In this document: positions 30,418 to 56,600 of the stretch, one piece after another
How the letters are laid out: each line of letters opens with the position of its first letter
Position numbering within the stretch: position 1 is the stretch's first letter
DNA from: an uncultured Thermoleophilia bacterium
GTDB lineage: Bacteria; Actinomycetota; Thermoleophilia; UBA2241
NCBI GenBank assembly: GCA_963715985.1
Contig: CAVQSP010000013.1
Span: forward strand, 611,795 to 675,794
DNA length: 64,000 bases
Direction: 5' to 3'
Translations under genes and position numbers: made by a program
Notes under the pieces: model-generated
What the model was told of the DNA's origin: nothing
The model's database searches: none
Seen by the model: the letters and a program-made list of their open reading frames with translations, nothing else

Positions 30418-30461
30418 CAGCGGAGCTCGAGCCCACTGAAGACGGAGGGCTCGTCGCCCGA

Positions 30462-30929
30462 CTACTCCTTCTGCATGTCGCGCACCATCGCGAGCAGCCC
30501 GCGGGCGAGGCCGATGCCGATGGACGGCTCCTCCTTCACCAGCTTGAGGAAGGCGGTACGCCCGATGCGCGCCGTGGTGAGCACGCCGGTCGCGGTCACG
30601 GTCGCCGCACGCGGCGCGCCGTCGAGGAGCGCCAGCTCGCCGAAGTAGTCGCCTTCGATCAGCTTGCGAGTGTGGCCGGCGGGCGTCTCCACCAGGGCGC
30701 CGCCGTCGAGGATGACGTACATGGCGTCACCGCGCGCCCCGGCACGCACCACTGCGGTGTCCTTCTTGAAGCGCTTCATCTCGGCGAGGCGGCCGACGCG
30801 GCGCAGGTGGCGCTGCGACAGCGCCTGGAAGAGGGGGACGCGCCCCAGTACGGGCAGCCATCCGGGATGCAGTGAATCGGTCGCGCTGTTCACGAAGGCT
30901 TGGATCCCAGAGACACTCCGCGCCTTCAT
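30462..30929 (-). CDS. Stand-alone cyclic nucleotide-binding domain protein
   Basis: VPLFQAL...G..GDAMYVILDG...GDYFGELALLDGAPRAATV; no HTH; AAAGGAG RBS. Confidence 0.88.
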   Translation of the reverse strand: MKARSVSGIQAFVNSATDSLHPGWLPVLGRVPLFQALSQRHLRRVGRLAEMKRFKKDTAVVRAGARGDAMYVILDGGALVETPAGHTRKLIEGDYFGELALLDGAPRAATVTATGVLTTARIGRTAFLKLVKEEPSIGIGLARGLLAMVRDMQKE

Positions 30930-36726: not shown

Positions 36727-36884
36727 GGTGGCCCCTCCTCCACTGGTGTGCGCCCCTGCGCGCGGCTCGCTCCCTACGAGCCGCTTCGTGAGTGTACGCC
36801 TTGCTGTGGTCTGCAGAGCGTTTCGTCGCCGCCGTTCCCCGGCCGTTGTCGCAGTTGTACGCTTCACTTGGGAGGGGGCATGGG

Positions 36885-39800
36885 ATGATCGCCTGTCCGT
36901 CGTGCGGGGCCCGGTTGCCCGGCGGTTCGCGCTTCTGTCTGAGCTGCGGGGCGGGGCTCGACGCGGCCGCCACCGGCCTCCCGCTCACGGAGGAGCGCAA
37001 GGTCGTCACCACGCTCTTCTGCGATCTCGTCGGCTTCACGGCGATGAGCGAGGGCTCTGATCCCGAGGACGTCGACGCCCTGCTGCGCGAGTACTCGGCG
37101 CGGGCGCGACGCGCGATCGAGGCCCACGGCGGCGTCGTGGAGAAGTTCATCGGCGACGCCGTGGTCGGAGTCTTCGGCGTGCCACGCGTGCACGAGGACG
37201 ACCCAGAGCGCGCGGTGCGCGCCGCCCTGCGCCTGATCGAGATGCTCGAGGGCATGACCCGTCCCGACGGCCCGTCGCTTCAGGCTCGCTGCGGCGTCAA
37301 CACCGGGGAGGCCCTTGTGCGCCTGGACGTCGATCCGCTCGCCGGGCTCGGCTTCCTCACCGGCGACGCCGTGAACACGGCCGCTCGGCTGCAGGCGGCA
37401 GCGCCGCCCGGCGGCGTCGCCGTCGGTGCCCTGACACACGAACTCACCAAGCGCGCCGTTATGTACGAGGAGCTGCCGGGGGTCGTCGCGAAGGGCAAGG
37501 CGGAGCCGGTCGCGGCCTGGCGGGCGGTGAGGCCCGTGGCGCGCACCGGCCTGCGCACCGCCGGGCTGACGTCCACCCGGTTTCTCGGCCGTGAGCTCGA
37601 GCTTGCGGCTCTTCACGGCGCGTTGGAGCGGGCCTCGGATGCCGCTGAGGCGCGCTTCGTGCTCGTCGTCGGCGAACCGGGCATCGGCAAGAGCCGCCTG
37701 GTTCTCGAGTTCTCGCGTGCTCTCGCTGCCTCGACCGATCTCTTCAGGTGGCGCCAGGGCCGTTGCCTCGCATACGGGGAGGGAGTCACGTTCTGGCCTC
37801 TGGGCGAGATCCTCAAGGAGCACGCCGGCATCTACGATTCGGACGATGTCGCGACCGTGGAGGCCAAGCTCGAAGCTGTGCTCCCGGAGGGCGAGGACGG
37901 GGCGTGGCTCCGCCAGCGGCTGCGTCCTCTGCTCGGCCTCACCGCGTCGCAGGCTGCCCGCGAGGAGAACTTCGCCGCATGGGCGCGCCTGCTCGAGTCG
38001 ATGGCGGGTGACCGCCCCGCGGTGCTGGTCGTAGAGGACCTGCACTGGGCCGGCGAGGCGATGCTGGCGTTCCTGGAGTACGTGCTGGCCTGCGACCTCG
38101 CAGTGCCGCTGCTGATCGTCGCCACGACCCGGCCCGAACTCCTTCGGCAGCACGAGGGGGCGCTCACGAGCCCCGCCGGTTCGGACCGGCTGCACCGGAT
38201 CACGCTGCCGAGTCTCTCGCGCACGGACACCGGGGCGCTCGTTGCCGACCTCTTCGACGGGGACCAGGCAGGTGGCGTGGGGGCCCACATCGCCGAGCTG
38301 GCCGGCGGCAACCCGCTCTACGCGGAGCAGTACGCGCGACTGCTGCTCGACGGCGGCTTCATCGCGCGGACGGGTGACACGCTGGATGTGGCAGGCACCG
38401 CGGAGCTCCCGCTGCCGAAGACGGTGCAGGCCGTGCTCGCGGCTCGTCTGGACACCCTCCCTCGCGAACACAAGGCGTTGCTCTGCGACGCCGCCGTCAT
38501 CGGCGAGACCTTCTGGCAGGGCGCTGTCGCGGAGCTGGCGGGTCGCGACTCGGGCGCCGTGGGCGAAGCCATGGCGGCGCTTGGCGCTCGTGATCTCGTG
38601 CGACCCGCGGCCGCGCCCACCATGGAGGGCGAGCCGGAGTACCTCTTCTGGCACGCCCTGGCTCGCGATGTGGCCTACGGACAGCTGCCGCGCAAGGTCC
38701 GGGCCCGCAAGCACCAGGCCGTGGCGCGCTGGATCGAAGGGCGGACAGGCGAGCGTGGCGACGAGTTCGCGGAGATCGTCGCCCATCACTACACGACGGC
38801 GCTCGACCTTGCCCGGGCCGCGCGAGATGCCGAGCTGGCTTCGTCGCTCGTCGCGCCGACCGTCGCCTGCCTCGCACGCGCCGGCGAGCGCGCCCTGCGC
38901 CTCGACGTGGCCGCGGCCGAGCGCTACTGCGCCCGCGGCCTCGAGCTCGCCGCACCCGACGCGCCCGAGAGACCCAGACTGCTCCAGCGGTGGGCTCAAG
39001 CCCTTTGGCTTCGCAGGCACTACCGCGAGGCGGCGGCAGCCTACAGGGAATCCATCGCCGGGCTGCAGGCCGCCGGCGAGAAGCGCACGGCAGCCGTCGC
39101 CATGTGCCATCTCGTCAGCGTGCTCACGTGGCTTGGCGAACCGTGCTTTGACATCACCCGAGCGGCCGTAGAGCTGCTCGCTGACGACGGGCCCTCGCCG
39201 GAGCGGGCCGAGGTGCTCGGGTTGTACGCCCTCGGCCTGATCCTGCTCGACGAGGAACCGGCGTCGGTCGTCGAGGCGGCGGACGAGGCCGTGGACATCT
39301 GCCGGCTCCTGGAGCTGCCCGAGCCGGCCATGGCCCTAAGCTGCCGCGGGTTCGCGAAGCTGCAGCTCGGTGACCTCGACGGCCTGGGTGACTACGAGCG
39401 TGCTATCGAGGCTGCGCGAGAGCAGGGGCTGGGCGTCGAACGCACAACTATCGAGCTCAACTACGCGGATCTCGTGTTCATCGTGAAGGGCGCACAGGCG
39501 CGCCTGGACGTCCTGCATGACGGCGCCGAGTTCGCACTCACGCACGGGCTGGATTCGTACGCCATCGCCTATCGCGGGACCATAGTCGCCGCACTCCTCA
39601 GTGCCGGCGAATGGGATCGGGCGCTCCGTGAGGCGGAGGAGCTGATCGTCGAGTACGACGCGCATGAGGAGCTCTGGGACGTGCTGACCATGCGGTCCTT
39701 GCAGGCGCTGATCCTCTCCGCCAAGGGGGAGGCCGGTGTGGCCCTGCCCTTTGTCTCCTGGATCGTGGACCAGGGACGTGAGAGCGAGATCGGATGGACA

Positions 39801-40313
39801 CGGATGATGGCGCTCTACGCGGGGGCGGCCGTTCATCTGAGCCTCGGCCACGCGGACGAGGGCCTGGGCCTGCTGGCGGAGTCCTTCGCGTCGCCGCGGG
39901 CCTCCGCCGCGGCACCGGACGACCTGCCGCAGGCGGTGAGAATGACCCTTATGGGCGGCGACGCGAAGCTGGCCCGACGGCTGGCGACCGAGACAAGGAA
40001 GTACATGCCGGCGAAGCTGCTGCCGCTGCAACAGCACGCGGTGGCGACGCTCGACGCGCTGTTCGCAGAGGTAGACGGGGACCGGGCGGCTGCGGCCGGC
40101 TTCGCCGACGCCGCCGCCCGCTGGCACGAGTTCGGCGTGCCCTACGAAGAGGGGCACGCCCTCCTGGGCGAGGGGCGCTGCCTGGTGGCGCTCGGAAGAG
40201 CGCCGGAGGCGGCAGCGCCCCTCGCCGCGGCCCGCGAGATCTTCGCGCGGCTCGGCGCCAGGCCGGCACTGGAGGAGACGGAGGAGTGGCTGGGGAGGGC
40301 GAGCACCTCGTGA
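36885..40313 (+). CDS. Zn-ribbon / class III cyclase / STAND ATPase / TPR protein #1
   Basis: CPSCG..FCLSCG, LFCDLVGFT, EKFIGDAV, GDAVNTAARL, GEPGIGKS, EDLHWA, GNPLYAE. Confidence 0.92.
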   Translation: MIACPSCGARLPGGSRFCLSCGAGLDAAATGLPLTEERKVVTTLFCDLVGFTAMSEGSDPEDVDALLREYSARARRAIEAHGGVVEKFIGDAVVGVFGVPRVHEDDPERAVRAALRLIEMLEGMTRPDGPSLQARCGVNTGEALVRLDVDPLAGLGFLTGDAVNTAARLQAAAPPGGVAVGALTHELTKRAVMYEELPGVVAKGKAEPVAAWRAVRPVARTGLRTAGLTSTRFLGRELELAALHGALERASDAAEARFVLVVGEPGIGKSRLVLEFSRALAASTDLFRWRQGRCLAYGEGVTFWPLGEILKEHAGIYDSDDVATVEAKLEAVLPEGEDGAWLRQRLRPLLGLTASQAAREENFAAWARLLESMAGDRPAVLVVEDLHWAGEAMLAFLEYVLACDLAVPLLIVATTRPELLRQHEGALTSPAGSDRLHRITLPSLSRTDTGALVADLFDGDQAGGVGAHIAELAGGNPLYAEQYARLLLDGGFIARTGDTLDVAGTAELPLPKTVQAVLAARLDTLPREHKALLCDAAVIGETFWQGAVAELAGRDSGAVGEAMAALGARDLVRPAAAPTMEGEPEYLFWHALARDVAYGQLPRKVRARKHQAVARWIEGRTGERGDEFAEIVAHHYTTALDLARAARDAELASSLVAPTVACLARAGERALRLDVAAAERYCARGLELAAPDAPERPRLLQRWAQALWLRRHYREAAAAYRESIAGLQAAGEKRTAAVAMCHLVSVLTWLGEPCFDITRAAVELLADDGPSPERAEVLGLYALGLILLDEEPASVVEAADEAVDICRLLELPEPAMALSCRGFAKLQLGDLDGLGDYERAIEAAREQGLGVERTTIELNYADLVFIVKGAQARLDVLHDGAEFALTHGLDSYAIAYRGTIVAALLSAGEWDRALREAEELIVEYDAHEELWDVLTMRSLQALILSAKGEAGVALPFVSWIVDQGRESEIGWTRMMALYAGAAVHLSLGHADEGLGLLAESFASPRASAAAPDDLPQAVRMTLMGGDAKLARRLATETRKYMPAKLLPLQQHAVATLDALFAEVDGDRAAAAGFADAAARWHEFGVPYEEGHALLGEGRCLVALGRAPEAAAPLAAAREIFARLGARPALEETEEWLGRASTS
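40092..40282 (+). repeat. ~190-bp repeat shared by 3' ends of four cyclase-STAND genes (other copies ~43464-43655, ~46966-47157, ~51721-51912)
   Basis: GCCGGCTTCGCCGACGCCGCCGCCCGCTGG.ACGA.TTCGGCGTGCCCTACGAAGAGGGGCACGCCCT...GCCCGCGAGATCTTCGCGCGGCTCGG nearly identical in all four. Confidence 0.95.
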
Positions 40314-43300
40314 GCGAGACCGTCGTCTGCGCGGCGTGCGGCGCGGAGAACCCGGCCGGCTTCAGGTTCTGCGGCCAGTGTGCTGCGCCGCTCGCCGCTG
40401 TGCCTGTCGTCGCCGAGGAGCGCAAGGTCGTCACCACGCTCTTCTGCGATCTCGTCGGCTTCACGGCGATGAGCGAGGCTGCCGACCCCGAAGACGTCGC
40501 CGCTGTCGTGCGGCAGTACCACGCTGCCGCGCGTAAGGTGATCGAGTTGCACGGCGGCACGGTCGAGAAGTTCATCGGCGACGCCGTGGTCGGGGTCTTC
40601 GGCGTCCCCGCGGTGCACGAGGACGATCCAGAGCGCGCTGTGCGTGCCGGCCTGCGTCTGGTGCTGGCGGTCGAGGGCATGACCCGTACGGACGGCGCCC
40701 CGCTCGAGGTCCGCGTCGGCGTCGATACCGGCGAAGCTCTGGTGCGCCTCGACGTCGACCCCGCCTCCGGCCGCGGCATCCTCACCGGCGACGCCGTGAA
40801 CACGGCGGCGCGCCTACAAGCAGCCGCGCCGCCGATGGGCGTCGTCGCCGGTGAGGCGACGCACGAGCTCACCCAGCGCGCCATCGTGTACGAGCAGCTC
40901 CCGCCCGTCGCCGCCAAGGGCAAGGCGGAGCCCGTCGCGGCCTGGCTGGCGCGTGCCCCGGTGGCGCGCGGCGCGGCGCGGATGGACCGGGCGGTCCTCT
41001 CTCCACTCGTCGGGCGTGAGGCGGAGCTTGCCCGTGTCACGAGCGTGTTCGAGGGAGCGGTGGCGTCGTCCGAACCGCGGTTCGCGCTGCTCGTTGGCGA
41101 GCCGGGCATCGGCAAGAGCCGCCTGATCGCCGAGCTCGCGGAGGTCGTGGACCGACGTCCCGAGCTTGTGGCCTGGCGCGAGGGCCGTTGCCTGCCGTAC
41201 GGCGAGAACGTGACCTTCTCGGCGCTCGCCGAGATCGTCAGGGCTCACGCCGGTATCCCGGATGCCGCGGATGAGGCGGCCACGCGATCCCGGCTCGAGG
41301 CGGCGCTCCCCGACAGCGAGGACCGTGCGTGGCTGCTCAACCGCTTGGGCGCGCTTCTCGGCCTGGAAGCTCCTGCGGGCACGCGAGAAGAGAACTTCGC
41401 TGGATGGACACGCTTCCTGGAGACGGCCGCCGCGAGCCGACCCACTGTGCTGGTGTTCGAGGACCTGCACTGGGCCGACGAAGCGCTTCTCGCTTTTCTC
41501 GACTACTTCGCGTCGCACGTTGCCGACGTGCCCGTGATCGTCCTCGCCTGCACCCGTCCCGAGCTGTTCGAACGCGACCCGACGTTCGCTCGAGAGAGTC
41601 CCCGTCTCGAGCGTGTCGACCTCAAGCCGCTCTCGCGCGCCGAGACTGCGAGCCTGGTCGACGCAGTCCTGTCGGAGACCGGGAGTCGCGCGGGCGCCGA
41701 GATAGCCGCACGTTGCGGCGGCAATCCCTTCTACGCTGAACAGTCGGCGCGCTACCTCACCGACACGGCGCACGCCACCGTGCTGCCGGGCTCGGTGCAG
41801 GCGGTGATCGCCGCCAGGCTTGATGCCCTCCCGGCCGCGCACAAGGAGCTCGTGGGCGACGCGGCGGTGATCGGCCCGGTGTTCTGGGACGGGGCTCTGA
41901 CCGAGGTCGCCGAACGCGAGCCCGCCGACGTGAGGCAGGCCGTCGACGACCTGGTCTCGAGACAGCTCTTCCGTCGAGTACGCTCTCCGACGACAGCGCT
42001 GACGGGCGTGCACGAGATCGCCTTCGTGCATGCGCTCGCCCGCGACGTCGCGTACCGCCAGCTGCCGCGTGCAGTGCGCGCCCGGAAGCACGCCGCCACG
42101 GCGCGCTGGCTCGAGCAGAAGGCCGCCGATCGTCCAGAGGATCTCGCCGAGACGCTGGCGCATCACTACGTGACGGCACTCGGGTTGGCTCGGGCATGCG
42201 GCGAGCATGGCCTCGAGGCGACGCTGATCGACCCCGCGGTCCGCTACTTGACCGCATCCGGCGACCGCGTCTTCAACGCGGACCTCGGAGCCGCCGAGCG
42301 CTACTATCGCGATGCTCTGGACATCGCGCCGGCGGGCGCGGCCGGTCGCGCGGCGCTGCAGGCGCGTCTCGGTGAGGTGGTCCTCTGGGGCGGTCGCGAC
42401 GCTGAAGCGGCGGACCTTCTGGAAGAAGCGGCGTTGCGGCTCCGCGCGGCCGGCGACGTACGCCGTAGTGCGGTCGCCCTTGTGTGCCTGGCTCGCGCCC
42501 GTGAGAACGTCGCCGGCTCTGCAGCGCTTGGGGGCTACTTCCGTGACGCCTTGGCGCTTCTGGACGACGACGGTCCCTCGCCCGAGCTTGTGCGCGTGCT
42601 CGTCGAGTGGGGCCGGCTGAAGGCCAATCTGGACGAGCCGGAGCTGGGGCTCGCCGCTTTCGAGAGCGCCCTCGAGGCCGCGCGACGGATCGGCGCGCCG
42701 GTGCCGGCGCTCGCGCTCAATCTGCGCGGCATCGTCCGGAGGGATCTCGGTCTGCCAGGGTATGTGACCGACTTCCGCCGCTCCCTCGAGCTGGCGCAGG
42801 AGCAGGGTCTGGGCGTGGACCTTGGACGCGTGTGGGGCAACTACGCAGCGTTCCTCGGCCAGCAGGAGGGACCGGGGCGCGCTCTCGAAGAGCAGGCGCG
42901 CGCCCTGGCGTTCCTGAAGTCACGGGGTCTCACGTCGCTCGTGGACAGCGAGATCCCCCGGCACGTCGAGTCACTTCTGTATGCGGGGCGCTGGGCGGAG
43001 GCCGTCGCCGAGGCCTACGCGCTGGAGTCTGCGGCGGACGTGAACGTCCCCGCCTCCACGTTGTTCCTCGTGACCGTGATGCGGCTGCTCGTGCAGTCCT
43101 GGCAGGGCGTACCGGCCGAGGGCGGCTGCGAAGGTCGGTCGCTGTCCGACGCCTCGCGAGACGGCTCGTTCGACGTCGACGTGGCCTTCGGGTCACTGAT
43201 CGCCGAGCTGGTCTCGGTATGGTCATCGCCCCATCAGGCGACGGCGCTCCTCGAGCGCATGGTGGCGACGATGACGCCGGGCATCGCCGTCTGGTGCGCG

Positions 43301-43711
43301 GGGCTCATGCCCGACGCAGGTCGGCTGGCCCTTCGTGGCGCCGCCCCCGAGCTGGCCGAACGCCTCCTCGGCTGCGTTCAGGGTCCGCTGCCGGTCGCCG
43401 AGCTCGCTCGCCAGAGCCTCACTGCGCTGCTCGCCGAGGCGCATGGGGAGCTGGAGGCGGCGACGGCCGGCTTCGCCGACGCCGCCGCCCGCTGGCACGA
43501 GTTCGGCGTGCCCTACGAAGAGGGGCACGCCCTGTTCGGCCAGGGGCGCTGCCTGGTGGCGCTCGGCAGAGCGCCGGAGGCGGCAGCGCCCCTCGCCGCG
43601 GCCCGCGAGATCTTCGCGCGGCTCGGCGCCAGGCCGGCGCTGGCGGAGACGGATGAGTGGCTTGCCGGGTCAGGCATCTCGCACATCGCCGACGACGGTG
43701 GCGCGCCGTGA
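40310..43711 (+). CDS. Zn-ribbon / class III cyclase / STAND ATPase / TPR protein #2
   Basis: Same motifs; GTGA overlap with #1. Confidence 0.92.
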   Translation: MSETVVCAACGAENPAGFRFCGQCAAPLAAVPVVAEERKVVTTLFCDLVGFTAMSEAADPEDVAAVVRQYHAAARKVIELHGGTVEKFIGDAVVGVFGVPAVHEDDPERAVRAGLRLVLAVEGMTRTDGAPLEVRVGVDTGEALVRLDVDPASGRGILTGDAVNTAARLQAAAPPMGVVAGEATHELTQRAIVYEQLPPVAAKGKAEPVAAWLARAPVARGAARMDRAVLSPLVGREAELARVTSVFEGAVASSEPRFALLVGEPGIGKSRLIAELAEVVDRRPELVAWREGRCLPYGENVTFSALAEIVRAHAGIPDAADEAATRSRLEAALPDSEDRAWLLNRLGALLGLEAPAGTREENFAGWTRFLETAAASRPTVLVFEDLHWADEALLAFLDYFASHVADVPVIVLACTRPELFERDPTFARESPRLERVDLKPLSRAETASLVDAVLSETGSRAGAEIAARCGGNPFYAEQSARYLTDTAHATVLPGSVQAVIAARLDALPAAHKELVGDAAVIGPVFWDGALTEVAEREPADVRQAVDDLVSRQLFRRVRSPTTALTGVHEIAFVHALARDVAYRQLPRAVRARKHAATARWLEQKAADRPEDLAETLAHHYVTALGLARACGEHGLEATLIDPAVRYLTASGDRVFNADLGAAERYYRDALDIAPAGAAGRAALQARLGEVVLWGGRDAEAADLLEEAALRLRAAGDVRRSAVALVCLARARENVAGSAALGGYFRDALALLDDDGPSPELVRVLVEWGRLKANLDEPELGLAAFESALEAARRIGAPVPALALNLRGIVRRDLGLPGYVTDFRRSLELAQEQGLGVDLGRVWGNYAAFLGQQEGPGRALEEQARALAFLKSRGLTSLVDSEIPRHVESLLYAGRWAEAVAEAYALESAADVNVPASTLFLVTVMRLLVQSWQGVPAEGGCEGRSLSDASRDGSFDVDVAFGSLIAELVSVWSSPHQATALLERMVATMTPGIAVWCAGLMPDAGRLALRGAAPELAERLLGCVQGPLPVAELARQSLTALLAEAHGELEAATAGFADAAARWHEFGVPYEEGHALFGQGRCLVALGRAPEAAAPLAAAREIFARLGARPALAETDEWLAGSGISHIADDGGAP

Positions 43712-46700
43712 GCAAGCCCCTCACGTGTCCCGCTTGTCACGCGGTGAACCCGGCCCCTGCGCGCTTCTGCATGACGTGCGGTCACGCCCTGGGGCCGCCC
43801 GGACCGGCGCCGACGCGCACGCCCCCGTCGAGGAGCGCAAGACCGTCACCACGCTGTTCTGCGACCTGGTGGGCTTCACGGCGATGAGCGAGCAGGCGGA
43901 CCCGGAGGACGTCGACGCCTGCCTGCGCGCTTACGGTGCCGCTGCCCGCGCCGTGATCGAGCGCTACGGCGGCTCCGTGGAGAAGTTCATCGGCGACGCC
44001 GTGGTCGGCGTGTTCGGCGTCCCGGTGGTGCACGAGGACGACGCCGAGCGCGCCGTGCGCGCCGCCCTGCGCCTGCTCCAGGAGCTCGCCGGGCTCCGGC
44101 GCCCGGACGGAGCCTCTCTGCAGGTCCGCGTCGGCGTCAACACCGGCGAGCTCGTCGTGGCCCTGGACGCCGACCCCGTGCTCGGCGATGGTCTGGTGCG
44201 CGGGGACGCCATCAACACGGCCGCGCGCCTCGAGGCGTCGGCGGCGCCCGGCTCGGTCGTCGTCGGGGCTCTGACCCGCAGGCTGACCGAGCGCATCATC
44301 GCCTACGAGAGCCTCCCTGCGGCGCCGGTCAAGGGAAAGGCGCGGCCTTTGAGCGCTGGCGCGCCCTGCGCCCGGTCGCTCGCGTCGGCGAGGAGACGAG
44401 CGCGGACCGTCTCTCTCCGTTCGTCGGCCGCGACAGCGAGCTCGCCTTCCTCGTCAGCCTCTTACGCCGTGCGATCGACGGGCGCACGCCCCAGACCGCT
44501 CTCATCCTCGGCGACCCCGGCATCGGCAAGAGCCGCCTGGTGCGCGAGCTCTTCGCCGTGGTCGACGCCGGCACAGAGATGATCTACTGGCGTCGCGGCC
44601 GCTGCGTGCCCTACGGCGACGGCCGCACGTTCTGGGCGCTGCGCGAGATCGTCCGCGCGCACGCCGGCATCCTCGAGACGCACGATGCGGACACCGCGGC
44701 GGAGCTCCTCGAGAGCGTCGTCGAGGAGGGGCCGGACCACGGCTGGCTCTGCGATCGGCTCCGGCCGCTCGTCGGACTCGACGCGGCCGAGGCCGAGCCG
44801 CGGCAGAACTACGCCGCCTGGCTCAGGTTCCTCCGCGACGTGGCCACTCGCCGGCCGCTCGTGCTCGTCGTGGAGGACCTCCACTGGGCCGACGAGGCGC
44901 TGCTGGCGTTCCTCGAGTACGTATCGCTCGAGGCGGCCGGAGTGCCGCTGCTGACCATCGCCACCGCACGCCCGGCCGTGTTCGAGCATCATCCGTCGTT
45001 CGCGGCGTCGGGCGGCAGAGTGACGCGCATGTGGCTCGAGCGCCTGTCCGACGACGAGACACACAGCCTCGTCGCCTCGCGCCCCGAGATGGGGGGCCGC
45101 GACCCGGCCACCGTCGAGCTGGTCGTGCGCAGCGCCGAGGGCAACCCGTTCTTTGCCGAGGAGCTCGCCAGCCTGCTCGCCGAGCGCGCCTCGGGGGACT
45201 ACGCCGGGGGTGGTGAAGGTGCTCTTCCGCAGTCCGTCCAGGCGGTGATCGCGGCGCGCATCGACGCCCTGTCACCGCCGGCCAAGTCGACACTGGCGGA
45301 CGGCGCCGTGATCGGCGTCAGGTTCTGGCGTGGACCCCTGCTGCCGATGGGGGGCCGGGACGCGGCGGCAGTGGACGAGAGTCTGCGCGAACTCGTCGAC
45401 CGGCAGTTGCTGCGCGCCGTCCGCCAGTCCTCGCTCGACGACGAGGACGAGTTCGTCTTCCGCCACGGCATGATCCGCGAGGTCGCCTACCACGAACTGC
45501 CGAGGGGCGCGCGGGCGCAGAAGCACGCGGTGTTCGCCCGGTGGCTGGAGGCCAGGTGGGTGCCCGCGCTCGCGGCGACCTCAGTGACATCCTCGCCGGC
45601 CACTTCGCCGCGGCCGCCGAGCTGGCGCGAGCCGCCGGCCACGCGGCGCTGGAGGCGGCGGTCACGGACGAGGCCGTCGACTACCTCTCGGCCGCGGGCG
45701 ACAGGGCCCTGGGCCTGGACGCGAGCGCGGCGGCGCAGCTGTACGCTCGCGCGCTGGATCTCGCCGGCCCTGGGCGCGGCGACCGCGCCGCGCTCCTCTC
45801 CCGCGCGGCGGAGGCGCGGTTCCGCGAGGGCCGCTACCGCGAGTCTGCGGCCGCGTTGCTGGAGTCGGCGGTCGGGCTCAGCGCCGTCGGCGACCGCCGC
45901 GCCGCGGCGCTGGCGGCGGCGCGGCGGGCCGACGTCCTCTACGCCCTCGGCGACCCGGGGGTGACGCTGCAGCTGGAGGGGGCGCTGTCGCTGCTCGAGC
46001 GGGGAAGCTCCCTGCGCGGAGACCGTGGCCGTGCTGGGTAGGCTGGGGCGGGCGTTGTGGCTCGGCGGCGACCCTCACGGCGGCCTCGAGAAGCTGGAGC
46101 AGGCCCTGGAAGTGTCGCGGGCGCTTGAGCTGCCCGAGCCCGTCCTCTTCCTCGGGTACCGCGGCGGCATCCGCGCCATCCTGGGCGACGTGAACGGGCT
46201 CGACGACTACCTCGAGGGCCTGCGCCTCGCCAACGAGCGGGGGCTGGCGCGCGAGGCGGCGCTGCTCACCTTCAACTACGCCGACGCGTTGCTCTCGTAC
46301 CGCGGCCCCCGCGCCGCCGCGGACGCGCTCGTCTCTGGAATGGACACCGCGCGGCGGCGGCGTCTGGAGGCGCTCGGGGCGCGGCCGGCGCGGGACGGCG
46401 AGGCCTCGACGGGGTCCATGGGCGAGTGGGACGCGGAGACCGCACGCCGCCTCACCGTCAACCTTGTCGAGGCACTCGGCATGATGGGCGAGTGGGACGA
46501 GGCGCTGGCGAAGGCGGCGGAGCTGATGCCTGAGCTCGAACGTAGCGAGGCCGGTTCCGATCTCGTGATCGTGCGCACCCAGGAGGCGGTGCTCCGCGTG
46601 TGCAGAGGAGAGGCGCAGCTGGCGGATCCCTTCATCGCCTGGCTCGAGCAGTGCGGCCTCGAGAGCGAGATCCCCTGGATCGCGGCGTACGCTCTGCTCG

Positions 46701-47188
46701 CCGCGACGCCCGTGCGGTACGGCCTCGGCGACGCCGGCGCCGCTCTCGGCCTTCTGGCCCAGTGGGAGGCCCGGCCGCGGCCCGGAAGCGGGCCCAACTA
46801 CGTGGCCTACCTGCCCGAGGCGGTGCGCACGGCGCTGGCCGCCGGCGACGACGTGCTGGCCGGGCGGCTCGCGAGCGGTGTCGAGAGCATCCTGCCGATG
46901 CAGCGCAACGTCCTCGCGTCGTTGCAGAGCCTGGTGAGCGAGCGGGCGGGAGCACCGGAAGCGGCGGCGGCCGGCTTCGCCGACGCCGCCGCCCGCTGGT
47001 ACGACTTCGGCGTGCCCTACGAAGAGGGGCACGCCCTCTTCGGGCAGGGGCGCTGCCTGGTGGCGCTCGGCAGAGCGCCGGAGGCGGCAGCGCCCCTGGC
47101 CGCGGCCCGCGAGATCTTCGCGCGGCTCGGGGCCAGGCCGGCGCTGGCGGAGACGGACGCGGCCCTGCGGCGCGTCGCATCCGCCTGA
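43708..47188 (+). CDS. Zn-ribbon / class III cyclase / STAND ATPase / TPR protein #3 (apparent frameshifts near 43810, 44345, 45555, 46005)
   Basis: CPACH..FCMTCG, LFCDLVGFT, GDAINTAARL, GDPGIGKS, EDLHWAD; pieces in successive ORFs; GTGA overlap with #2. Confidence 0.85.
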
Positions 47189-47269
47189 CCGCCGCGACCT
47201 CGTAGCATGCTGAGCGCAACGTGGGCCGGCGGGTACGCAAGCGTCCGTTTCGGCCCCGCCGAGCCATGC

Positions 47270-47328
47270 TTGCGCCACCCAGCACTGGCGTGCTATATGA
47301 ACACTGTGTGTTCAATCTGTACAGATTG
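47270..47328 (+). promoter_or_regulatory. Promoter TTGCGC-18bp-TATATG followed by two overlapping palindromes (putative operator)
   Basis: TGAACAC-tgt-GTGTTCA (47298-47314) and perfect CAATCTGTACAGATTG (47313-47328). Confidence 0.65.
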
Positions 47329-47336
47329 GTGACGAC

Positions 47337-48566
47337 ATGTTGATCCCACGCACGCTCGAGGCCCGTCTGCAGGAGTCGGCCGGTCCGTTCCCCGTCCTGT
47401 TCCTCACGGGTCCCCGGCAGAGCGGCAAGACGACGCTCGCACGCATGGCGTTTCCCGACTACCTGTACGTCTCACTCGAGGATCCGCAGCGCAGGGCGGA
47501 GGCGCTGGAGGACCCGCGGGCGCTCCTTCGACGGGTCGCGGGGGCGCCCGGAGTGATCTTCGACGAGGCACAGCGCGCGCCGGAGCTCTTCTCCTACATC
47601 CAGGGCGTGGTGGACGAGCGACGCGGCGGACCGTTCGTGCTCACCGGGTCGCAGAACTTCCTCCTCTCGGAGAAGATCACGCAGTCGCTCGCCGGCCGCA
47701 CCGCGGTGTTCGAGCTGCTGCCGTTCTCCGTGGCCGAGCTTGTGCGACGCCCGGCCCTGGAGCCGGAGGACTTCTGCAGGGTGCGCGGCGGCGCGGGCGG
47801 CGGGGCGACTCCGACACGGCCATCGCTACCCCTCGAGGATCTCGTGTTCGTCGGGCTCTATCCCGCCATCCACGACCGCGGCGTCGACGCCGCCCAGTGG
47901 CTGCGAAGCTACGTCAGGACCTACGTTGAGCGTGACGCGCGCGCCGTCGGCGCCATCGGCGACCTCGACACGTTCTTGCGCTTCCTCGGCCTGTGTGCAG
48001 GGCGCAGTGGGCAGCTGCTGAATCTCTCGGCGCTGGGGGCCGAGGCCGGGGTGAGCCACAGCACCGCGCGCAGGTGGCTCTCCGTGTTGCGGGCGAGCTA
48101 CATCGTGACGCTCCTGGCGCCGCACCACGAGAACTTCAGCAAGCGCATCGTGAAGACGCCGAAGCTCTACTTTCTCGATACGGGTCTGCTGTGCGCCTTG
48201 CTCGGCGTGCGCGATGCCGACGACCTCTGGAACCACCCGCTGCGCGGCGCCCTGTTCGAGACGTTCGTGGTGGCCGAACTGACGAAGCTCTTCGTTCACT
48301 GCGGCGAGCGGCCCCGCCTCTTCTTCTGGCGTGACTCACACGGCACCGAGGTCGACGTGCTCGTCGATCTCGGTCGTGAGCGCGTGGCCGTCGAGGTCAA
48401 GTCCGGCCTGACGGTGGCCGCAGACGCGTTCCGCGGTCTGGAGGCCTACCAGCGGCTACGCCACGCGAGTGGGGGCGAGTCCGGAGGCAGCGTGCTGGTC
48501 TACGGCGGCGACGAGTGGTACGAGCGTCGCGGGCACGATGTGCGCCCGTGGTGGGCATGTACGTAG
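47337..48566 (+). CDS. AAA_14 ATPase with DUF4143 (PD-(D/E)XK-like) domain
   Basis: GPRQSGKTT, IFDEAQ, LTGSQ, SLAGR, KTPKLYFLDTG, FWRD..G.EVD...VEVKSG. Confidence 0.9.
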   Translation: MLIPRTLEARLQESAGPFPVLFLTGPRQSGKTTLARMAFPDYLYVSLEDPQRRAEALEDPRALLRRVAGAPGVIFDEAQRAPELFSYIQGVVDERRGGPFVLTGSQNFLLSEKITQSLAGRTAVFELLPFSVAELVRRPALEPEDFCRVRGGAGGGATPTRPSLPLEDLVFVGLYPAIHDRGVDAAQWLRSYVRTYVERDARAVGAIGDLDTFLRFLGLCAGRSGQLLNLSALGAEAGVSHSTARRWLSVLRASYIVTLLAPHHENFSKRIVKTPKLYFLDTGLLCALLGVRDADDLWNHPLRGALFETFVVAELTKLFVHCGERPRLFFWRDSHGTEVDVLVDLGRERVAVEVKSGLTVAADAFRGLEAYQRLRHASGGESGGSVLVYGGDEWYERRGHDVRPWWACT

Positions 48567-48585
48567 GCGAGGGATGGGAACCGCG

Positions 48586-51500
48586 ATGAGTGTGTGTGCC
48601 GCGTGCGGCGCCGAGAACCCGGCGCGGGCCAAGTTCTGTAACGAGTGCGGCGCCCAGCTGGCCGCCCCGCACGCCGCGGCGGATGAGCGCAAGATGGTGA
48701 CCACCCTCTTCTGCGACCTCGTCGGCTTCACGGCGATGAGCGAGGCCGCCGACCCCGAGGACGTCGACGCCCTGCTGCGCGAGTACTCGGCCCGGGCGCG
48801 TCGCGTCATCGAGTCGCACGGCGGCACCGTGGAGAAGTTCATCGGCGATGCCGTCGTCGGCGTCTTCGGCGTGCCCGCCGTGCACGAGGACGACCCGGAG
48901 CGCGCCGTGCGCGCAGCCCTGCGCCTGATCGAGGCGCTCGAAGGCATGGCGCGGCCCGACGGCAGCCCGCTCGAGGCGCGCTGCGGCGTCAACACCGGCG
49001 AGGCCCTGGTCCGCCTCGACGTCGCCCCCGGGAGCGGCGACGGCTTCCTCACCGGCGACGCCGTGAACACGGCGGCGCGGCTTCAGGCAGCCGGCCCACC
49101 CGGCGGCGTCGCCGTCGGCGCGCTGACCCACCAGCTCACGCATCGCGCCATCGTCTACCAGGATCTGCCGCCGGTCGCGGCCAAGGGCAAGGCCGAGCCG
49201 GTTCCCGCCTGGCTCGCCACCGCGCCCATGGCCCGCATGGGCGCCGATGCCGAGCGTCGGCAGCTCACTCCCCTGGTCGGTCGCGCGGCCGAGACCGCCG
49301 CGCTTCGCGCCCTTGTCGACAGCGTCATCGCGGCCCGATCATCGCGATCCGTCCTCATCGTCGGCGAGCCCGGCATCGGCAAGACCCGCCTCGTCCAGGA
49401 GCTCTTCGCCCACGTCGACGCCCTGCCCGAGATGGTCACCTGGCGACAGGGCCGCTGCCCGTCGTACGGCGAGAGCATCGCGTTCTGGGCGCTCGCCGAG
49501 ATCGTCAAGGCCCATGCCGGCATCCTCGACGGGGATGACGGTGCCGCCGCAGCCGACAAGATCTCGGCCGCCGTCCTCGACGGTCCCGATCACACCTGGA
49601 TGGTGAACCGCCTGCGGGCTCTCGTGGGTCTCGAGGCACCCCCGGCCGAGAGGGAGGAGAACTTCACGGCCTGGCTGCGCTTCTTCGAGCAGGTGGCCAA
49701 CGACGAGCCGTTCGTACTGGTGGTCGAGGACCTGCACTGGGCCGACGACGGCCTGCTCGCCTTCGTCGAGCATCTCGCGCGCCATGCCGGGGCCGCGCCG
49801 CTCCTCCTACTCGGCACGGCACGTCCCGAGCTGCTCGAGACCAATCCGACGCTCGGTGCAAACGGCGGCGGGTTGACCCGCATGTCGCTGGGCCCGCTCA
49901 CCTCGGCGGAGACGGAGCAGCTGGTGGCAGACGTGCTGGGTGATGGCGAGGCCGAGAGCCGGCAGATCGCCGACATCGTCGCGCGCTGTGCCGGCAACCC
50001 GTTCTTCGCGGAGGAGTCGGCGCGCCTGCTCGCCGACCAGCGGCCCGGGGAGCCAGTGCCTGCCTCCGTCCAAGCCGTGATCGCCGCCCGCCTTGACGCG
50101 CTGCCCGGCGAGGAGAAGACGGCCTTGGCTGATGCCGCCGTCGTCGGGGAGGTCTTCTGGGACGGCGCGCTCACGGAGCTGGGCCGGCGCGAGCGCGTCG
50201 AGGTGGATGCCGCGCTGGGCGCTCTCCACGACAAGCACCTGGTGAGACGGGCGCGCGAGTCCTCAATGGCCGGCGAGAGCGAGTTCACGTTCACGCACGC
50301 CCTGACGCGCGACGTGGCCTACGGCACGCTGCCGCGCCGGGCCCGCGCGCAGAAGCACGCGCAGACGGCCGCCTGGCTGGAAGGCCGGGCGGGCGGCCGC
50401 CTCGAGGATGTGGCCGACCTCCTCGCCCATCACAGCGCCACGGCCTTCGAGCTCGCCGAGGCCGTCGGCGACGGCGAGCTGGCCCAGCGTTGCCGCAAAC
50501 CGGCCGTCACGGCCCTCCGGCTCGCCGGCGATCGTGCCGTGCGGCTCGATGTCGAGGCGGCGGAGAGACTCCTCGCCCGGGCGGCGGGTATCTGCTCTGA
50601 CGAGGACCCGCAACGGCCCGCACTCTATGAGGAGTGGGGCAGGTCGCTGCTCCTGCGCAGTCGCTACGAAGATGCCAGAGTCGCTCTCGAGGAATCGACT
50701 CGCGGCTTCCTTGCGAGCGGACGAAGACCAGAGGCGGCGATGGCCATGATCTCGCTGGAGGTGGCGCAGTTCTTTCTGGGCGGACGGGACTGGCGCGCGG
50801 TCCTCGACGAGGCGATGCTGCTGACCGACGATGAGCCCTGTGGCCAGACTCGGGCCCACGTCCTGACCGCCATCGCCAGCGGCCGGATCGTGCTGGGCGA
50901 CTACACCGGCGGGCTCGACTGGATCAAGCGCGCCGTCGATATCTACGGCCGCTGCGGGCTGGAGGTTCCCCTTCGTCTCCAGGGGTGGCAAGCGCAGGCG
51001 GAATGCGGGCTCGGCGACCGCGGTGCGGGCGACAGGTTGCTTTCGGTGGCGCGTGCGATGAGGGAGGAGGGGCTGGGTCGTGACGCGATGGTCGCCTACT
51101 CCAACTACGGGATCTCGATGTACCCCATCGAAGGCCCTCGCGCCTACGACAGCGCGCAGGAAGGTCTCGACTTCTTGCGCGGTCGCGGCATCTCCGAGGA
51201 GGGGATCCTGGCCATGAACCGTTGCTCTGGCCTCGTATCCGCCGGGCGCTGGGACGAGGCCCGGCGCAGCATGGAGGAGTCTCGCCCCTGGCTGCAGCAG
51301 CAGGACAATCAGCTGGCGTTCTGCTTCTGGTGGGTGAATCGTGCCGAGCTCCTGACACTCACAGGAGAGGGACGGGAGGCGGTCGAATGCGCCCGCGAGG
51401 CGGACGAGCGCGCGCAGCAGTGGGACGACGTGATACGTGTCCATGGTCGTGCGACCCTCGTCACGGCGCTGGCGTGCGCTGGCGACCGGAGGCGAGCGAT

Positions 51501-51933
51501 CGAGCTACTGGCCGGGATCGCGAGTGTCCCGCACCCGAGGGGGTTCCAGGGCTACGAGGAGCTGATCCCCCAGCTGATGCGACTCGCTCTGCATTGCCGG
51601 GAGGCCGCACTGGCCGAACAGCTGATCGCGGGCATCGAGCCCGATGTGCCTCTGCTCGAGCACGTGTTGGTGACGGGACAAACCCTACTGGCGGAGGCGC
51701 GCGGTGAGCACGAAGCCGCGGCGGCCGGCTTCGCCGACGCCGCCGCCCGCTGGCACGAGTTCGGCGTGCCCTACGAAGAGGGGCACGCCCTCCTCGGGCA
51801 GGGGCGCTGCCTGGCGGCGCTCGGCAGAGCGCCGGAGGCGGCAGCGCCTCTCGCCGCGGCCCGCGAGATCTTCGCGCGGCTCGGGGCCAAGCCGGCGCTG
51901 GCGGAGGCGGACGAGTGGCTGACGCACACGTGA
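48586..51933 (+). CDS. Zn-ribbon / class III cyclase / STAND ATPase / TPR protein #4
   Basis: CAACG..FCNECG, LFCDLVGFT, GDAVNTAARL, GEPGIGKT, EDLHWAD, GNPFFAEE; alternative start 48574. Confidence 0.92.
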   Translation: MSVCAACGAENPARAKFCNECGAQLAAPHAAADERKMVTTLFCDLVGFTAMSEAADPEDVDALLREYSARARRVIESHGGTVEKFIGDAVVGVFGVPAVHEDDPERAVRAALRLIEALEGMARPDGSPLEARCGVNTGEALVRLDVAPGSGDGFLTGDAVNTAARLQAAGPPGGVAVGALTHQLTHRAIVYQDLPPVAAKGKAEPVPAWLATAPMARMGADAERRQLTPLVGRAAETAALRALVDSVIAARSSRSVLIVGEPGIGKTRLVQELFAHVDALPEMVTWRQGRCPSYGESIAFWALAEIVKAHAGILDGDDGAAAADKISAAVLDGPDHTWMVNRLRALVGLEAPPAEREENFTAWLRFFEQVANDEPFVLVVEDLHWADDGLLAFVEHLARHAGAAPLLLLGTARPELLETNPTLGANGGGLTRMSLGPLTSAETEQLVADVLGDGEAESRQIADIVARCAGNPFFAEESARLLADQRPGEPVPASVQAVIAARLDALPGEEKTALADAAVVGEVFWDGALTELGRRERVEVDAALGALHDKHLVRRARESSMAGESEFTFTHALTRDVAYGTLPRRARAQKHAQTAAWLEGRAGGRLEDVADLLAHHSATAFELAEAVGDGELAQRCRKPAVTALRLAGDRAVRLDVEAAERLLARAAGICSDEDPQRPALYEEWGRSLLLRSRYEDARVALEESTRGFLASGRRPEAAMAMISLEVAQFFLGGRDWRAVLDEAMLLTDDEPCGQTRAHVLTAIASGRIVLGDYTGGLDWIKRAVDIYGRCGLEVPLRLQGWQAQAECGLGDRGAGDRLLSVARAMREEGLGRDAMVAYSNYGISMYPIEGPRAYDSAQEGLDFLRGRGISEEGILAMNRCSGLVSAGRWDEARRSMEESRPWLQQQDNQLAFCFWWVNRAELLTLTGEGREAVECAREADERAQQWDDVIRVHGRATLVTALACAGDRRRAIELLAGIASVPHPRGFQGYEELIPQLMRLALHCREAALAEQLIAGIEPDVPLLEHVLVTGQTLLAEARGEHEAAAAGFADAAARWHEFGVPYEEGHALLGQGRCLAALGRAPEAAAPLAAAREIFARLGAKPALAEADEWLTHT

Positions 51934-52086: not shown

Positions 52087-53076
52087 ATGACCCCGCCAAG
52101 CGCTGCCGACCAGGCCGACTCGACCTGGCATCCTGCATCCCCATGGTCCGGCTGGGCCGAGTGGCTCGCCGGCGTCCCGCTCTTCGCCGGTCTGTCTCGC
52201 GGCCATCTGAAGCGCGTCGCCCGGCTGGCCCACCTGAGGTCGTACGCGGATGGCAAGACGCTGACGAGCGCCGGGTCTCGCGGCGACGCCTTCTTCGTCA
52301 TCCTCGAGGGCAGCGCTCATCTGGAGACGCCCGCCGGCCACACGCGCGAGCTGAAGGCCGGCGACTCGTTCGGCGAGCTCGCGCTCATCGACGGCGCCCC
52401 GCGCGCGGCCACCATCGTGGCCGTGGGCGACGTGAGCGTGGCCCGCATCGAGCGCGCGGCGTTTCTGGAGCTCATGCGCGAGGAGCCACCGATCGCGATC
52501 GGGCTCGCCCGGGGCGTGGTCGCGATCATCCGTGACCTGGAGGCGGACGCCGTGCCGGCGACGGTCGCGGGCGGTGCGGACGCCGCGGCAGCCGGGGCGG
52601 CGGATCCTCTGGAGCAGCTGACTCAGGCCAGCGGCGATCGCGCGTCGCGCAAGGCCGCAGCCGGCCTGGCGGAGGCGCTCTTGGCCGGCGTGCCCATGTT
52701 CGCTGAGCTGCCTCAGCGGCGCCTGCACAAGGTCGCCGCGGTAGCGGCGGTGAAGCGCTACCCGGCGGGCGACGTCGTCGCCCGCGCCGGCGCCCGCGGC
52801 GCCGTGTTCCACGTCATCGCTTCAGGCCGTGCAAAGGCCGTCACCCCGGACGGCCGCGAGAACGTGATGGAGCCGGGAGGATTCTTTGGCGAGCTCTCGT
52901 TGCTCGACGGCGCGCCGCGTGCGGCCACGGTGAGTGCCCTCGACGAGCTCGTGACGGTGTGCATCTCTCGCAGCGATCTCACGAAGCTGCTCAAAGAGGA
53001 ACCCAACATCGCCGTCGGCCTGTTGCGCGGCCTTGTCGCCTTGGTCAGGGACGTGGAGGCGCAAGCAGCGAGCTGA
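52087..53076 (+). CDS. Tandem cyclic nucleotide-binding domain protein
   Basis: Two CNBDs: FGELALIDGAPRAAT and FGELSLLDGAPRAAT; GGAGG RBS. Confidence 0.9.
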   Translation: MTPPSAADQADSTWHPASPWSGWAEWLAGVPLFAGLSRGHLKRVARLAHLRSYADGKTLTSAGSRGDAFFVILEGSAHLETPAGHTRELKAGDSFGELALIDGAPRAATIVAVGDVSVARIERAAFLELMREEPPIAIGLARGVVAIIRDLEADAVPATVAGGADAAAAGAADPLEQLTQASGDRASRKAAAGLAEALLAGVPMFAELPQRRLHKVAAVAAVKRYPAGDVVARAGARGAVFHVIASGRAKAVTPDGRENVMEPGGFFGELSLLDGAPRAATVSALDELVTVCISRSDLTKLLKEEPNIAVGLLRGLVALVRDVEAQAAS

Positions 53077-56485: not shown

Positions 56486-56600
56486 GTCCCGACTTTATCG
56501 GGCGTGAGCGTGGGAGTCCACGCATCGCGTGACCCTCAAGACCTCGTCCTCCGCCATCCTTCAAAGTAGAGTAGTGGTGCATCCGGACCGGGAGGGCCGA

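Follow-up and report, generated by a model that had tools for sequence, protein, structure and literature searches.

The Cyclase Array and Its Proteins

The stretch of DNA analysed here (the window) comprises 64,000 nucleotides, 70% of them G+C, of an uncultured bacterium of the class Thermoleophilia (assembly GCA_963715985.1, contig CAVQSP010000013.1, positions 611,795 to 675,794), and it belongs to a contig of 676 kb in a genome bin of 4.35 Mb with a completeness of 88.8% and a contamination of 7.3%. Positions 36885–51933 of the window hold an array of four genes on the plus strand, g1 to g4, whose nearly identical 3' ends, referred to below as tails, are the main subject of this work. The genes code for proteins of 1118–1143 residues with the same order of domains, namely a Zn-ribbon, a class III cyclase, a P-loop nucleoside triphosphatase (NTPase) of the STAND type (AAA_16), a long helical-repeat sensor and a two-hairpin C-terminal cap. 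Relatives retrieved with the proteins belong to metagenome-assembled Gaiellaceae, Gaiellales and Thermoleophilia, and the genus is Gaiellales-like.

Gene g1 (36885–40313) is an open frame with the Pfam matches Zn_Ribbon_1, Guanylate_cyc and AAA_16, and its orthologs were found in the genomes G056, G015 and G017 of the genus. The same architecture is encoded by g2 (40310–43711; ortholog at the locus L039 of G019, with 70.6% amino acid identity), by g3 (43708–47188), which carries four frameshifts as assembled, and by g4 (48574–51933; ATG start at 48574 or 48586; orthologs in G061 and G018). Both g2 and g3 begin with a GTG that overlaps the stop of the preceding gene. These GTGA overlaps (40310–40313 and 43708–43711), from which a preliminary description of this DNA had read the translational coupling of the first three genes, are real, but g3 is not one open frame in the assembly.

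The Guanylate_cyc profile (PF00211) was matched by g1, g2, the g3 piece and g4 with 61.6–69.3 bits against a cut-off of 21.9, which places them among the class III cyclases, and a profile search of the PDB retrieved adenylate and guanylate cyclases at E 1e-29. The residues D47, D91, N164 and R168 (numbered as in g4) do not vary among 26 genes; from the motifs F-x-D-x-x-G-F-T, I-G-D and N-x-x-x-R they are presumably the metal-binding aspartates and the Asn/Arg transition-state pair. For the ATPase part, the AAA_16 matches range from E 4e-21 to 6e-26, and the residues of Walker A (G263, P265, G266, I267, G268, K269) and Walker B (E384, D385) are likewise invariant in 26 genes, as in P-loop NTPases. 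The AlphaFold model of g4 has a predicted local distance difference test score (pLDDT) of 81.6, and it is confident for the NTPase and the helical hairpins, which make up all of residues 587–1117 (pLDDT 85–98), and not for the cyclase domain (32–60). With this model, Foldseek returned as the best match 6mfv_A, a STAND NTPase with a TPR sensor (E 2e-13), which assigns the STAND fold; Apaf-1, Avs3, MalT and SAMD9 followed, the first three at E 1e-7 to 3e-6. The TM-scores of these matches, 6mfv_A included, are low (0.26–0.41). The Pfam matches to TPR in the array proteins were weak and under the threshold, and no Pfam match to a C-terminal helix-turn-helix (HTH) was found in them.

Identity of the Gene Ends within the Array

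The tail copies, each coding for the C-terminal helical cap, occupy 40090–40282 in g1, 43461–43655 in g2, 46965–47157 in g3 and 51719–51912 in g4; they were compared in nucleotide windows and by site patterns and, for g1, g2 and g4, also by synonymous divergence (dS) and exact runs. Over these last ~190 bp the identity is 91–98% in 60-bp windows for all six gene pairs and 94–96% overall, while the sensor region upstream of the tail shows 26–66% in windows of the same size, and the identity falls again over the final 20–55 bases ahead of each stop. The copies differ from each other at 7–11 of 183 positions, and their longest exact runs reach 70–74 bp (g1/g2, g1/g4 and g2/g4). By the Nei-Gojobori method, applied to the pairs among g1, g2 and g4, the tail dS is 0.08–0.15, and 50/57 to 53/57 of the identical residues share their codon, against dS values of 0.49–0.60 in the cyclase, 0.93–1.05 in the NTPase, 1.1–1.3 in the sensor and 0.83–1.30 overall outside the tail and the cyclase. 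Thus, the near-identity of the four tails, synonymous sites included, holds where the preliminary description had placed it, and the tail dS lies far below the values elsewhere in the genes (0.49–1.30) instead of equalling them, as it would under protein-level constraint only.

At the 5' end, a run of 64 bp at the start of the cyclase domain of g1 (36990–37053) is identical to 40415–40478 of g2, exactly as had been claimed, and makes a candidate second conversion tract. The long near-identical tracts described between g1 and g4 are borne out in part for the cyclase head, with exact runs of 38, 33 and 28 bp and one 60-bp window at 93%.

Within the window's genome (G000), the tail DNA occurs in family genes only, i.e., in the four array copies, in one gene on the contig C10 and, weakly, in one on C9. 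The tail of the unlinked fifth paralog on C10, g5, is less alike (88–89%, dS 0.26–0.34). The tail is the end of a family-wide module, and a peptide of 39–63% identity is present at the same place in more distant relatives, so that it is an ancestral part of the gene; the candidate reading as a mobile element similar to miniature inverted-repeat transposable elements was rejected on these two grounds. More family copies were seen in this genome at C9:86773-90106, C15:86356-88311, C18:5794-9113 and C8:184855-185187, as tblastn matches in pieces that may be decayed genes or may reflect further assembly frameshifts.

The source being a bin of the completeness and contamination given above, with frameshifted genes in the window (g3, an SBP_bac_5 gene and a phosphodiesterase gene), the near-identity of the tails might be suspected to be an artefact of assembly or polishing. 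This explanation is hardly credible, given that the copies differ at 7–11 of 183 sites, that the tail is present in 26 of the 54 genomes of the genus, which are other assemblies, that independent short-read contigs span the genes and stop where the tails begin, which is how a genuine repeat behaves, and that rpoC and uvrA are intact. The collapse of the copies into one consensus, which the preliminary description had named as an alternative, does not account for the tail.

Age of the Paralogs and Evidence for Concerted Evolution

The trees were built from 32 genes of 14 genomes of the genus, with the partial genes G019_L040, G019_L043_0 and G056_L066 excluded. In the tree of the NTPase plus arm, g1 groups with the genes of G056, G015 and G017 (support 99), g2 with G019 L039 (100), g4 with the genes of G061 and G018 (100), and g5 with a gene of G064 (89). 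Since each paralog has its separate orthogroup, the duplications are older than the species of the genus, and the array genes are ancient paralogs. The orthologs flanking the array are saturated at synonymous sites between these species (proportion of synonymous differences, pS, 0.47–0.55).

The tails follow another pattern. The identity of the g4 tail is 0.945–0.962 to its paralogs versus 0.85–0.87 to its two orthologs; of the g3 tail, 0.94–0.96 versus 0.81–0.86 to five orthologs; of the g1 tail, 0.94–0.96 versus 0.84–0.91; and of the g2 tail, 0.956–0.962 versus 0.94, 0.88 and 0.80. Among the 136 pairs of 17 genes, three pairs of the G000 array hold ranks 1–3 in tail identity (0.945–0.956). 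Where the ortholog consensus differs from the consensus of the other array tails, 32 tail sites follow the paralogs, 8 the orthologs and 2 neither; for g3 alone the counts are 15 and 3, and this gene lacks the tail variant common to all five of its orthologs. A stricter sliding test, restricted to g1, g2 and g4, gave 21 sites for the paralogs and 2 for the orthologs in the three tail windows, against 69 and 275 in the sensor, 35 and 72 in the arm, 67 and 112 in the NTPase, and 58 and 47 in the cyclase domain; around the 64-bp run (sliding window 180–270) the ratio was 6:0 in favour of the paralogs.

Accordingly, inside the tail the paralogs are closer to each other than to their orthologs, and outside it, in the NTPase tree and the sensor, orthology prevails. 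A tail that is closer to the paralogs than to the orthologs in genes of such age indicates exchange: the tail clearly evolves in concert within this genome, and the cyclase head does so in part. The gene conversion of conserved ends suggested in the preliminary description is, therefore, supported for the tail and more weakly for the head. Recombination is the mechanism that we infer from comparative data of four kinds, namely the identity pattern, the contrast in dS, the sites following paralogs over orthologs, and the conflicts between module trees described below.

The favoured reading, which we hold to be probable, is that of ancient paralogs of STAND-gated class III cyclases with the cap DNA homogenised by short-tract gene conversion and the modules re-assorted over longer times. 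The cap, i.e., the last 61–64 codons, would stay alike as the most constrained protein segment in the genus, and its DNA likeness would offer a lasting substrate for homologous recombination between the neighbouring copies. Short non-reciprocal exchanges would then homogenise the cap among the array members, synonymous sites included, with the conversion tracts ending where the sensor DNA is too diverged for pairing, and the cyclase head would be affected likewise, though to a lesser degree. On a longer time scale, the conserved islands may also allow recombination to re-assort the NTPase and sensor modules across the lineages of the genus and to alter the array content.

Module Re-Assortment and Array Content in the Genus

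For g1, g2 and g4 the NTPase and sensor trees agree, while elsewhere in the genus at least three lineages are placed differently by the NTPase tree and the TPR tree. Thus, the NTPase-arm part of G001_7402 and G017_7094 is 69–72% identical in amino acids to that of the pair G019_L041_2 / G061_10475, but the sensor only 27–30%, and by their sensors the two genes fall with the g2 lineage (support 100). The switch lies at the alignment column ~650–660, the conserved arm/TPR junction. G064_12670 combines an NTPase of the g5 lineage with the sensor of G061_3725, and G058_3479 is the third case of module swapping; the breaks of these two genes fall in the same region. All six approximately unbiased (AU) tests rejected the grouping of the other module (p from 5e-4 to 1e-89), although these p values are optimistic, the groups having been picked after the identity table was seen. 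The swapping of sensor cassettes put forward in the preliminary description is thus upheld by old module conflicts in other genomes of the genus, but not by g1, g2 and g4 themselves, which are old congruent orthogroups. Its further suggestion that the swap junctions lie in the conserved cyclase flank does not hold, since the three swaps have their 5' break outside the cyclase head, where the NTPase arm meets the TPR. Beside these cases, the genes G061_17235 and G061_3725 (L062 and L070) have NTPases 66% identical (support 99) and unrelated sensors (33%), for which a duplication with sensor replacement or a conversion of the NTPase module within G061 could account.

The content of the array is not invariant among the relatives, as it might have been if no shuffling had taken place; both content and order differ. 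In G056, the SBP5 gene is followed by an unrelated family gene and then by the g1 ortholog; G064 carries two family genes, followed by a DUF4143 gene and next by a gene for a protein binding cyclic nucleoside monophosphates (cNMP), and lacks g4; in G019 the g2 ortholog stands between two DUF4143 genes; and G061 has three tandem genes. Two solitary tail remnants were found as well, one in G064, of 60 bp and 97% identity, just after the cNMP-binding gene (L060:18852-18911; G064:C2:88851-88910), and one in G043, of 150 bp and 93% identity, which starts 9 bp beyond an unrelated gene's stop (L075:598-747; G043:C83), and they look like footprints of deleted family genes. Taken as comparisons among genomes, these data support the view that recombination has re-assorted the modules and reshaped the arrays over evolutionary time; no sign of a frequent, programmed or ongoing process was seen in them or in the metagenome contigs.

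A programmed or fast diversification system, in which the conserved head and tail anchor a frequent exchange of sensor cassettes in the manner of nucleotide-binding leucine-rich repeat receptors (NLR) or pilins, would also produce module-tree conflicts, a variable array content and the solitary tails of G043 and G064, and would fit the fact that both gene ends, and only they, have unsaturated synonymous sites across the whole genus. Nevertheless, we regard such a system as very unlikely. The paralogs g1, g2 and g4 form old and congruent orthogroups; the swaps break at the NTPase-arm/TPR junction and not at the head; no recombinase, reverse transcriptase or similar gene was present among the 25 flanking open reading frames (ORFs) scanned; no truncated silent cassettes were found, the other copies in the genome being full-length or decayed family genes; and no trustworthy in-register junction was found in the contigs of four metagenome runs, all the sides being at most 40 letters long, though this last point is weak. 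The contig joints in these runs have sides of 20–40 letters, are out of register, come mostly from one run and probably derive from other organisms or paralogs. Programmed cassette variation similar to pilE/pilS or to diversity-generating retroelements was rejected, as no silent donors were found in the genome, no dedicated element or enzyme in the scanned flanks, and, on the weaker evidence of the contigs, no high-frequency variants.

Conservation of the Tail between Species

Several observations weigh against exchange within the genome as the full account of the tail, in addition to the optimistic p values mentioned above. In the site test, g4 alone gives only 3:2. The tail DNA tree is star-like, with too few sites to separate any groups, and all the array tails are near the genus consensus, so that slow evolution, and not exchange, could be behind a part of their likeness; the polishing of repeats in metagenome assembly could also have slightly inflated the identity among the copies. 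No population, copy-number or junction variant was seen in the metagenome contigs, which stop at the repeat and so are unable to span it. When orthologs from separate species are compared, the tail pS is 0.10–0.36 versus 0.47–0.55 in the flanking orthologs. Moreover, 60–90% of the 32 genes keep rare codons at five tail positions (GAA, GGG twice, AGA and GCA), where these codons are the majority. Conversion inside the genomes should not slow the divergence between species, and this points to nucleotide-level selection or to exchange between species; conversion alone does not explain the synonymous conservation of the tail across species.

The extent of this conservation is considerable. The tail was detected at E 1e-15 or better in the 26 genomes of the genus mentioned above, with 71–94% identity to the g2 tail, and no such long match was found in 16 searched genomes of other genera of the class; its peptide is nearly invariant and is the best conserved protein segment in the genus. 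In three ortholog pairs of different species the tail dS is 0.11, 0.35 and 0.49 versus 0.6–1.1 in the rest of the genes. Across 465 pairs of genes from different genomes, 67.1% of the identical tail residues have a common codon versus 45.7% expected from codon usage, whereas the sensor gives 0.428 versus 0.430; the observed-to-expected ratio is 1.47 in the tail, 1.31 in the cyclase head, 1.07–1.09 in the NTPase with the arm and 0.99 in the sensor. As to the rare codons, AGA (3% of the Arg codons in the family genes; 43568–43570, for example) is kept in 60% and GCA (7%; 43583–43585) in 66% of the genes with the respective residue, GGG (20%) in ~90% and GAA (17%) in 65%; conceivably, they serve to pause translation or make it depend on a rare tRNA.

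From the excess of shared codons over expectation, from a tail dS 2–7 times below that of the rest of the gene where the flanking orthologs are saturated, from the rare codons kept, and from the star-like tree with short branches for many near-consensus tails of at least five species, one may argue that no exchange took place at all and that purifying selection on the tail protein and its nucleotides (codon choice, translation speed or another function of the DNA or RNA) has left all the copies near-ancestral. Although these data give it some weight, such an explanation appears unlikely, because the g3 and g4 tails are 94–96% identical to the paralogs in their own genome versus 81–87% to their own orthologs, because g3 is without the tail variant of its five orthologs, and because the tails of tandem pairs are less alike in other genomes (0.87 in G001), so that constraint alone would yield ~80–87% and not 95%.

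It was also considered that the head and the 190-bp tail are kept alike among paralogs and species as DNA homology anchors, enabling the exchange, gain and loss of sensor modules within genomes and between co-occurring species; we consider this doubtful. If it were true, the array would be a counterpart of NLR-cluster evolution in bacterial cNMP signalling, and the kept rare codons and palindromes would belong to a DNA-level signal and not to the protein.

An improbable alternative is that three hairpins in the tail form a structured element of the RNA or DNA, acting in mRNA stability, translation or recombination, and that this element itself is conserved. Indeed, the g2 tail folds at −131.5 kcal/mol (z −4.3 versus 200 shuffles), a central hairpin of 12+8 bp is predicted in all four copies (z −1.9 to −4.4), four of the five kept rare codons lie within predicted stems, and the third positions pairing with U are purines in 57–59 of 69 tails, though the C/T-ending codons are commoner for Arg and make up about half for Ala. 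However, RNAalifold on the 69 tails gave no consensus structure (−1.9 kcal/mol); the named hairpins pair in 74.2% of the cells versus 73.2% in shuffles, with 22 double-change cells versus 16.3; a quarter of the cells are unpaired, and the divergent copies break the stems without compensating; Rfam gave no match at E up to 1; and the conservation is equally high in the codons outside the stems. With neither compensatory pairing nor a known family found by RNAalifold, pair counts and Rfam, the tail was not classed as a structured RNA, and scans for promoters and terminators gave nothing above shuffles. The synonymous and rare-codon conservation across species, which goes beyond conversion, is thus a loose end that the hairpin idea, having failed its test, does not tie up.

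Gene 3 and the Quality of the Assembly

As assembled, g3 changes frame near 43809, 44350, 45554 and 46000, with an in-frame stop at 45962–45964. Its ortholog in G024 is intact and 69–74% identical in amino acids over all four g3 pieces. The contigs of four wetland metagenome runs, 95–99% identical to the window, carry 1-base indels at the same four places: the first follows 43809, the second 44350 (with A or G, depending on the run) and the third 45554 or 45555, while the fourth is at 46000. These one-base indels mean that g3 is intact in related strains, and the frameshifts are probably consensus errors at strain-variable sites; alternatively, g3 may be a strain-specific pseudogene. The SBP_bac_5 gene (34908–36867, minus strand) is split over overlapping frames (profile positions 5–247 in one ORF and 246–359 in the next), and the gene of a type I phosphodiesterase (28510–30875, plus strand) is split likewise (2–119 and 144–289); both splits look like single-base indel errors of assembly, as in g3. 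In the contigs of two metagenome runs, an in-frame insertion of GGC was seen at 40084, right ahead of the g1 tail, which is a codon-length polymorphism at the tract boundary.

Comparison with Known Systems

The mycobacterial proteins Rv0386, Rv1358 and Rv2488c consist of a class III cyclase, an ATPase, TPR and a LuxR-type HTH. The array proteins share with them the N-terminal class III cyclase, followed by a P-loop (AAA_16/STAND) NTPase and helical repeats, and the affiliation to Actinomycetota, but differ in the N-terminal Zn-ribbon, in the two-hairpin cap in place of a C-terminal HTH, and in the tandem arrangement with homogenised ends. The cyclase and NTPase also align to ~280–900 of the 1267 positions of the NCBIfam model TIGR03903, the kinase/cyclase fusion protein of systems for thiazole/oxazole-modified microcins (TOMM), at E 1e-62 to 3e-69; membership in this family was rejected, the scores being 212–234 bits against a cut-off of 705, with no kinase domain in the proteins and no TOMM genes nearby. 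The PH0952-type STAND protein (PDB 6MFV), MalT, Apaf-1, Avs3 and SAMD9 are alike in the fold and in Walker A/B, within the low TM-scores reported above, but none of them carries a cyclase as the effector.

In Neisseria, the cassette-type antigenic variation of pilE/pilS involves a conserved 3' Sma/Cla repeat. Such sequences are listed in PMC4023411. The array resembles this system in that each copy carries conserved DNA at its 3' end and variable sequence upstream, but its copies are all full-length genes, and neither silent cassettes nor high-frequency variants nor a dedicated recombination element were found. Interlocus gene conversion and concerted evolution of paralogs have been described for the duplicate tuf genes of Salmonella, where non-reciprocal transfer between the repeated genes maintains their likeness (PMC5485169), in tracts bounded by the limits of similarity, as seems to be so here. 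In the array, homogenisation is confined to ~190 bp of genes 3.4 kb long, apart from weaker patches in the head, and the rest is saturated at synonymous sites. Intergenic exchange is also reported for the plant and fungal NLR clusters, e.g., the RPP8 family (PMC6771003) and the fungal NLRs (PMC13449251), which are likewise tandem STAND-type receptors: their signalling parts are conserved, their repeat sensors are hypervariable, and their paralogs recombine. In contrast to them, the swaps of the array genes involve whole modules and are old, and no sign of immune function, diversifying selection or exchange within the sensor was found in the array.

For bacterial cyclase-STAND genes, a keyword search of open-access text found neither module exchange nor concerted evolution described in any paper. 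The architecture of the array and the gene conversion of bacterial paralogs are already known, and the array is a clear and fairly ordinary case of conversion. It illustrates the modular evolution of a bacterial family of STAND-type receptors with cyclic-nucleotide output in uncultured soil and wetland Actinomycetota, in which exchange and selection maintain the uniformity of the output and cap modules, whereas the sensors can diverge freely and are sometimes re-assorted, a pattern known from the eukaryotic NLR clusters. For annotation and phylogeny, it follows that neither the cyclase head nor the tail is a sound basis for trees of these genes, which would be misleading.

Proposed Function and Genomic Neighbourhood

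Class III cyclases act as dimers. As judged from domain content, the array proteins may function as STAND-switch cyclases: the repeat sensor would presumably bind a ligand or a protein, the NTP-dependent oligomerisation would bring the cyclase domains together and activate them, and the cNMP product would be read by the neighbouring cNMP-binding proteins. A likely reader of this output is the protein of 329 amino acids encoded at 52087–53076 (plus strand), with two cNMP-binding domains (Pfam cNMP_binding in two stretches, E 5e-40), whose counterpart also adjoins the array in G064; Pfam revealed no toxic effector domain in it.

The combination of a class III-type cyclase with a neighbour bearing cNMP-binding domains recalls the Pycsar systems. 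PADLOC gave domain-level matches, at E 1e-16 to 1e-18 (62 bits at most) for PycC and at 4e-22 for the cNMP portion of the effectors, but they cover the shared domains only; the neighbour is without a TIR or membrane effector domain, and the cyclase is fused to a STAND-TPR sensor. An antiphage reading of the Pycsar or Avs type was, therefore, rejected; the two DUF4143 ATPases of the region match no more than a candidate system of PADLOC, PDC-S01.

The first of these AAA_14/DUF4143 ATPases (Pfam; PADLOC E 1e-103) lies between g3 and g4 at 47337–48566 and the second (E 5e-120) at 53224–54543, both on the plus strand, and in G019 and G064, too, the family genes have such ATPase homologs beside them. 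Two further cNMP-binding proteins are encoded at 54558–55796 (minus strand) and 56529–58256 (plus strand), one of them fused to a transporter of the major facilitator superfamily, and the phosphodiesterase gene described above is also near. The region of the array is a dense neighbourhood of cyclic-nucleotide signalling. A fifth, more distant gene with cyclase and AAA_16 domains was found at 24438–27410 (plus strand), its product being 28% identical to g4 and having an N-terminal extension of ~250 residues, with no matching tail DNA in the gene. Upstream of the signalling cluster, at 18900–24356 on the plus strand, a very large FG-GAP repeat protein of 1818 amino acids is encoded.

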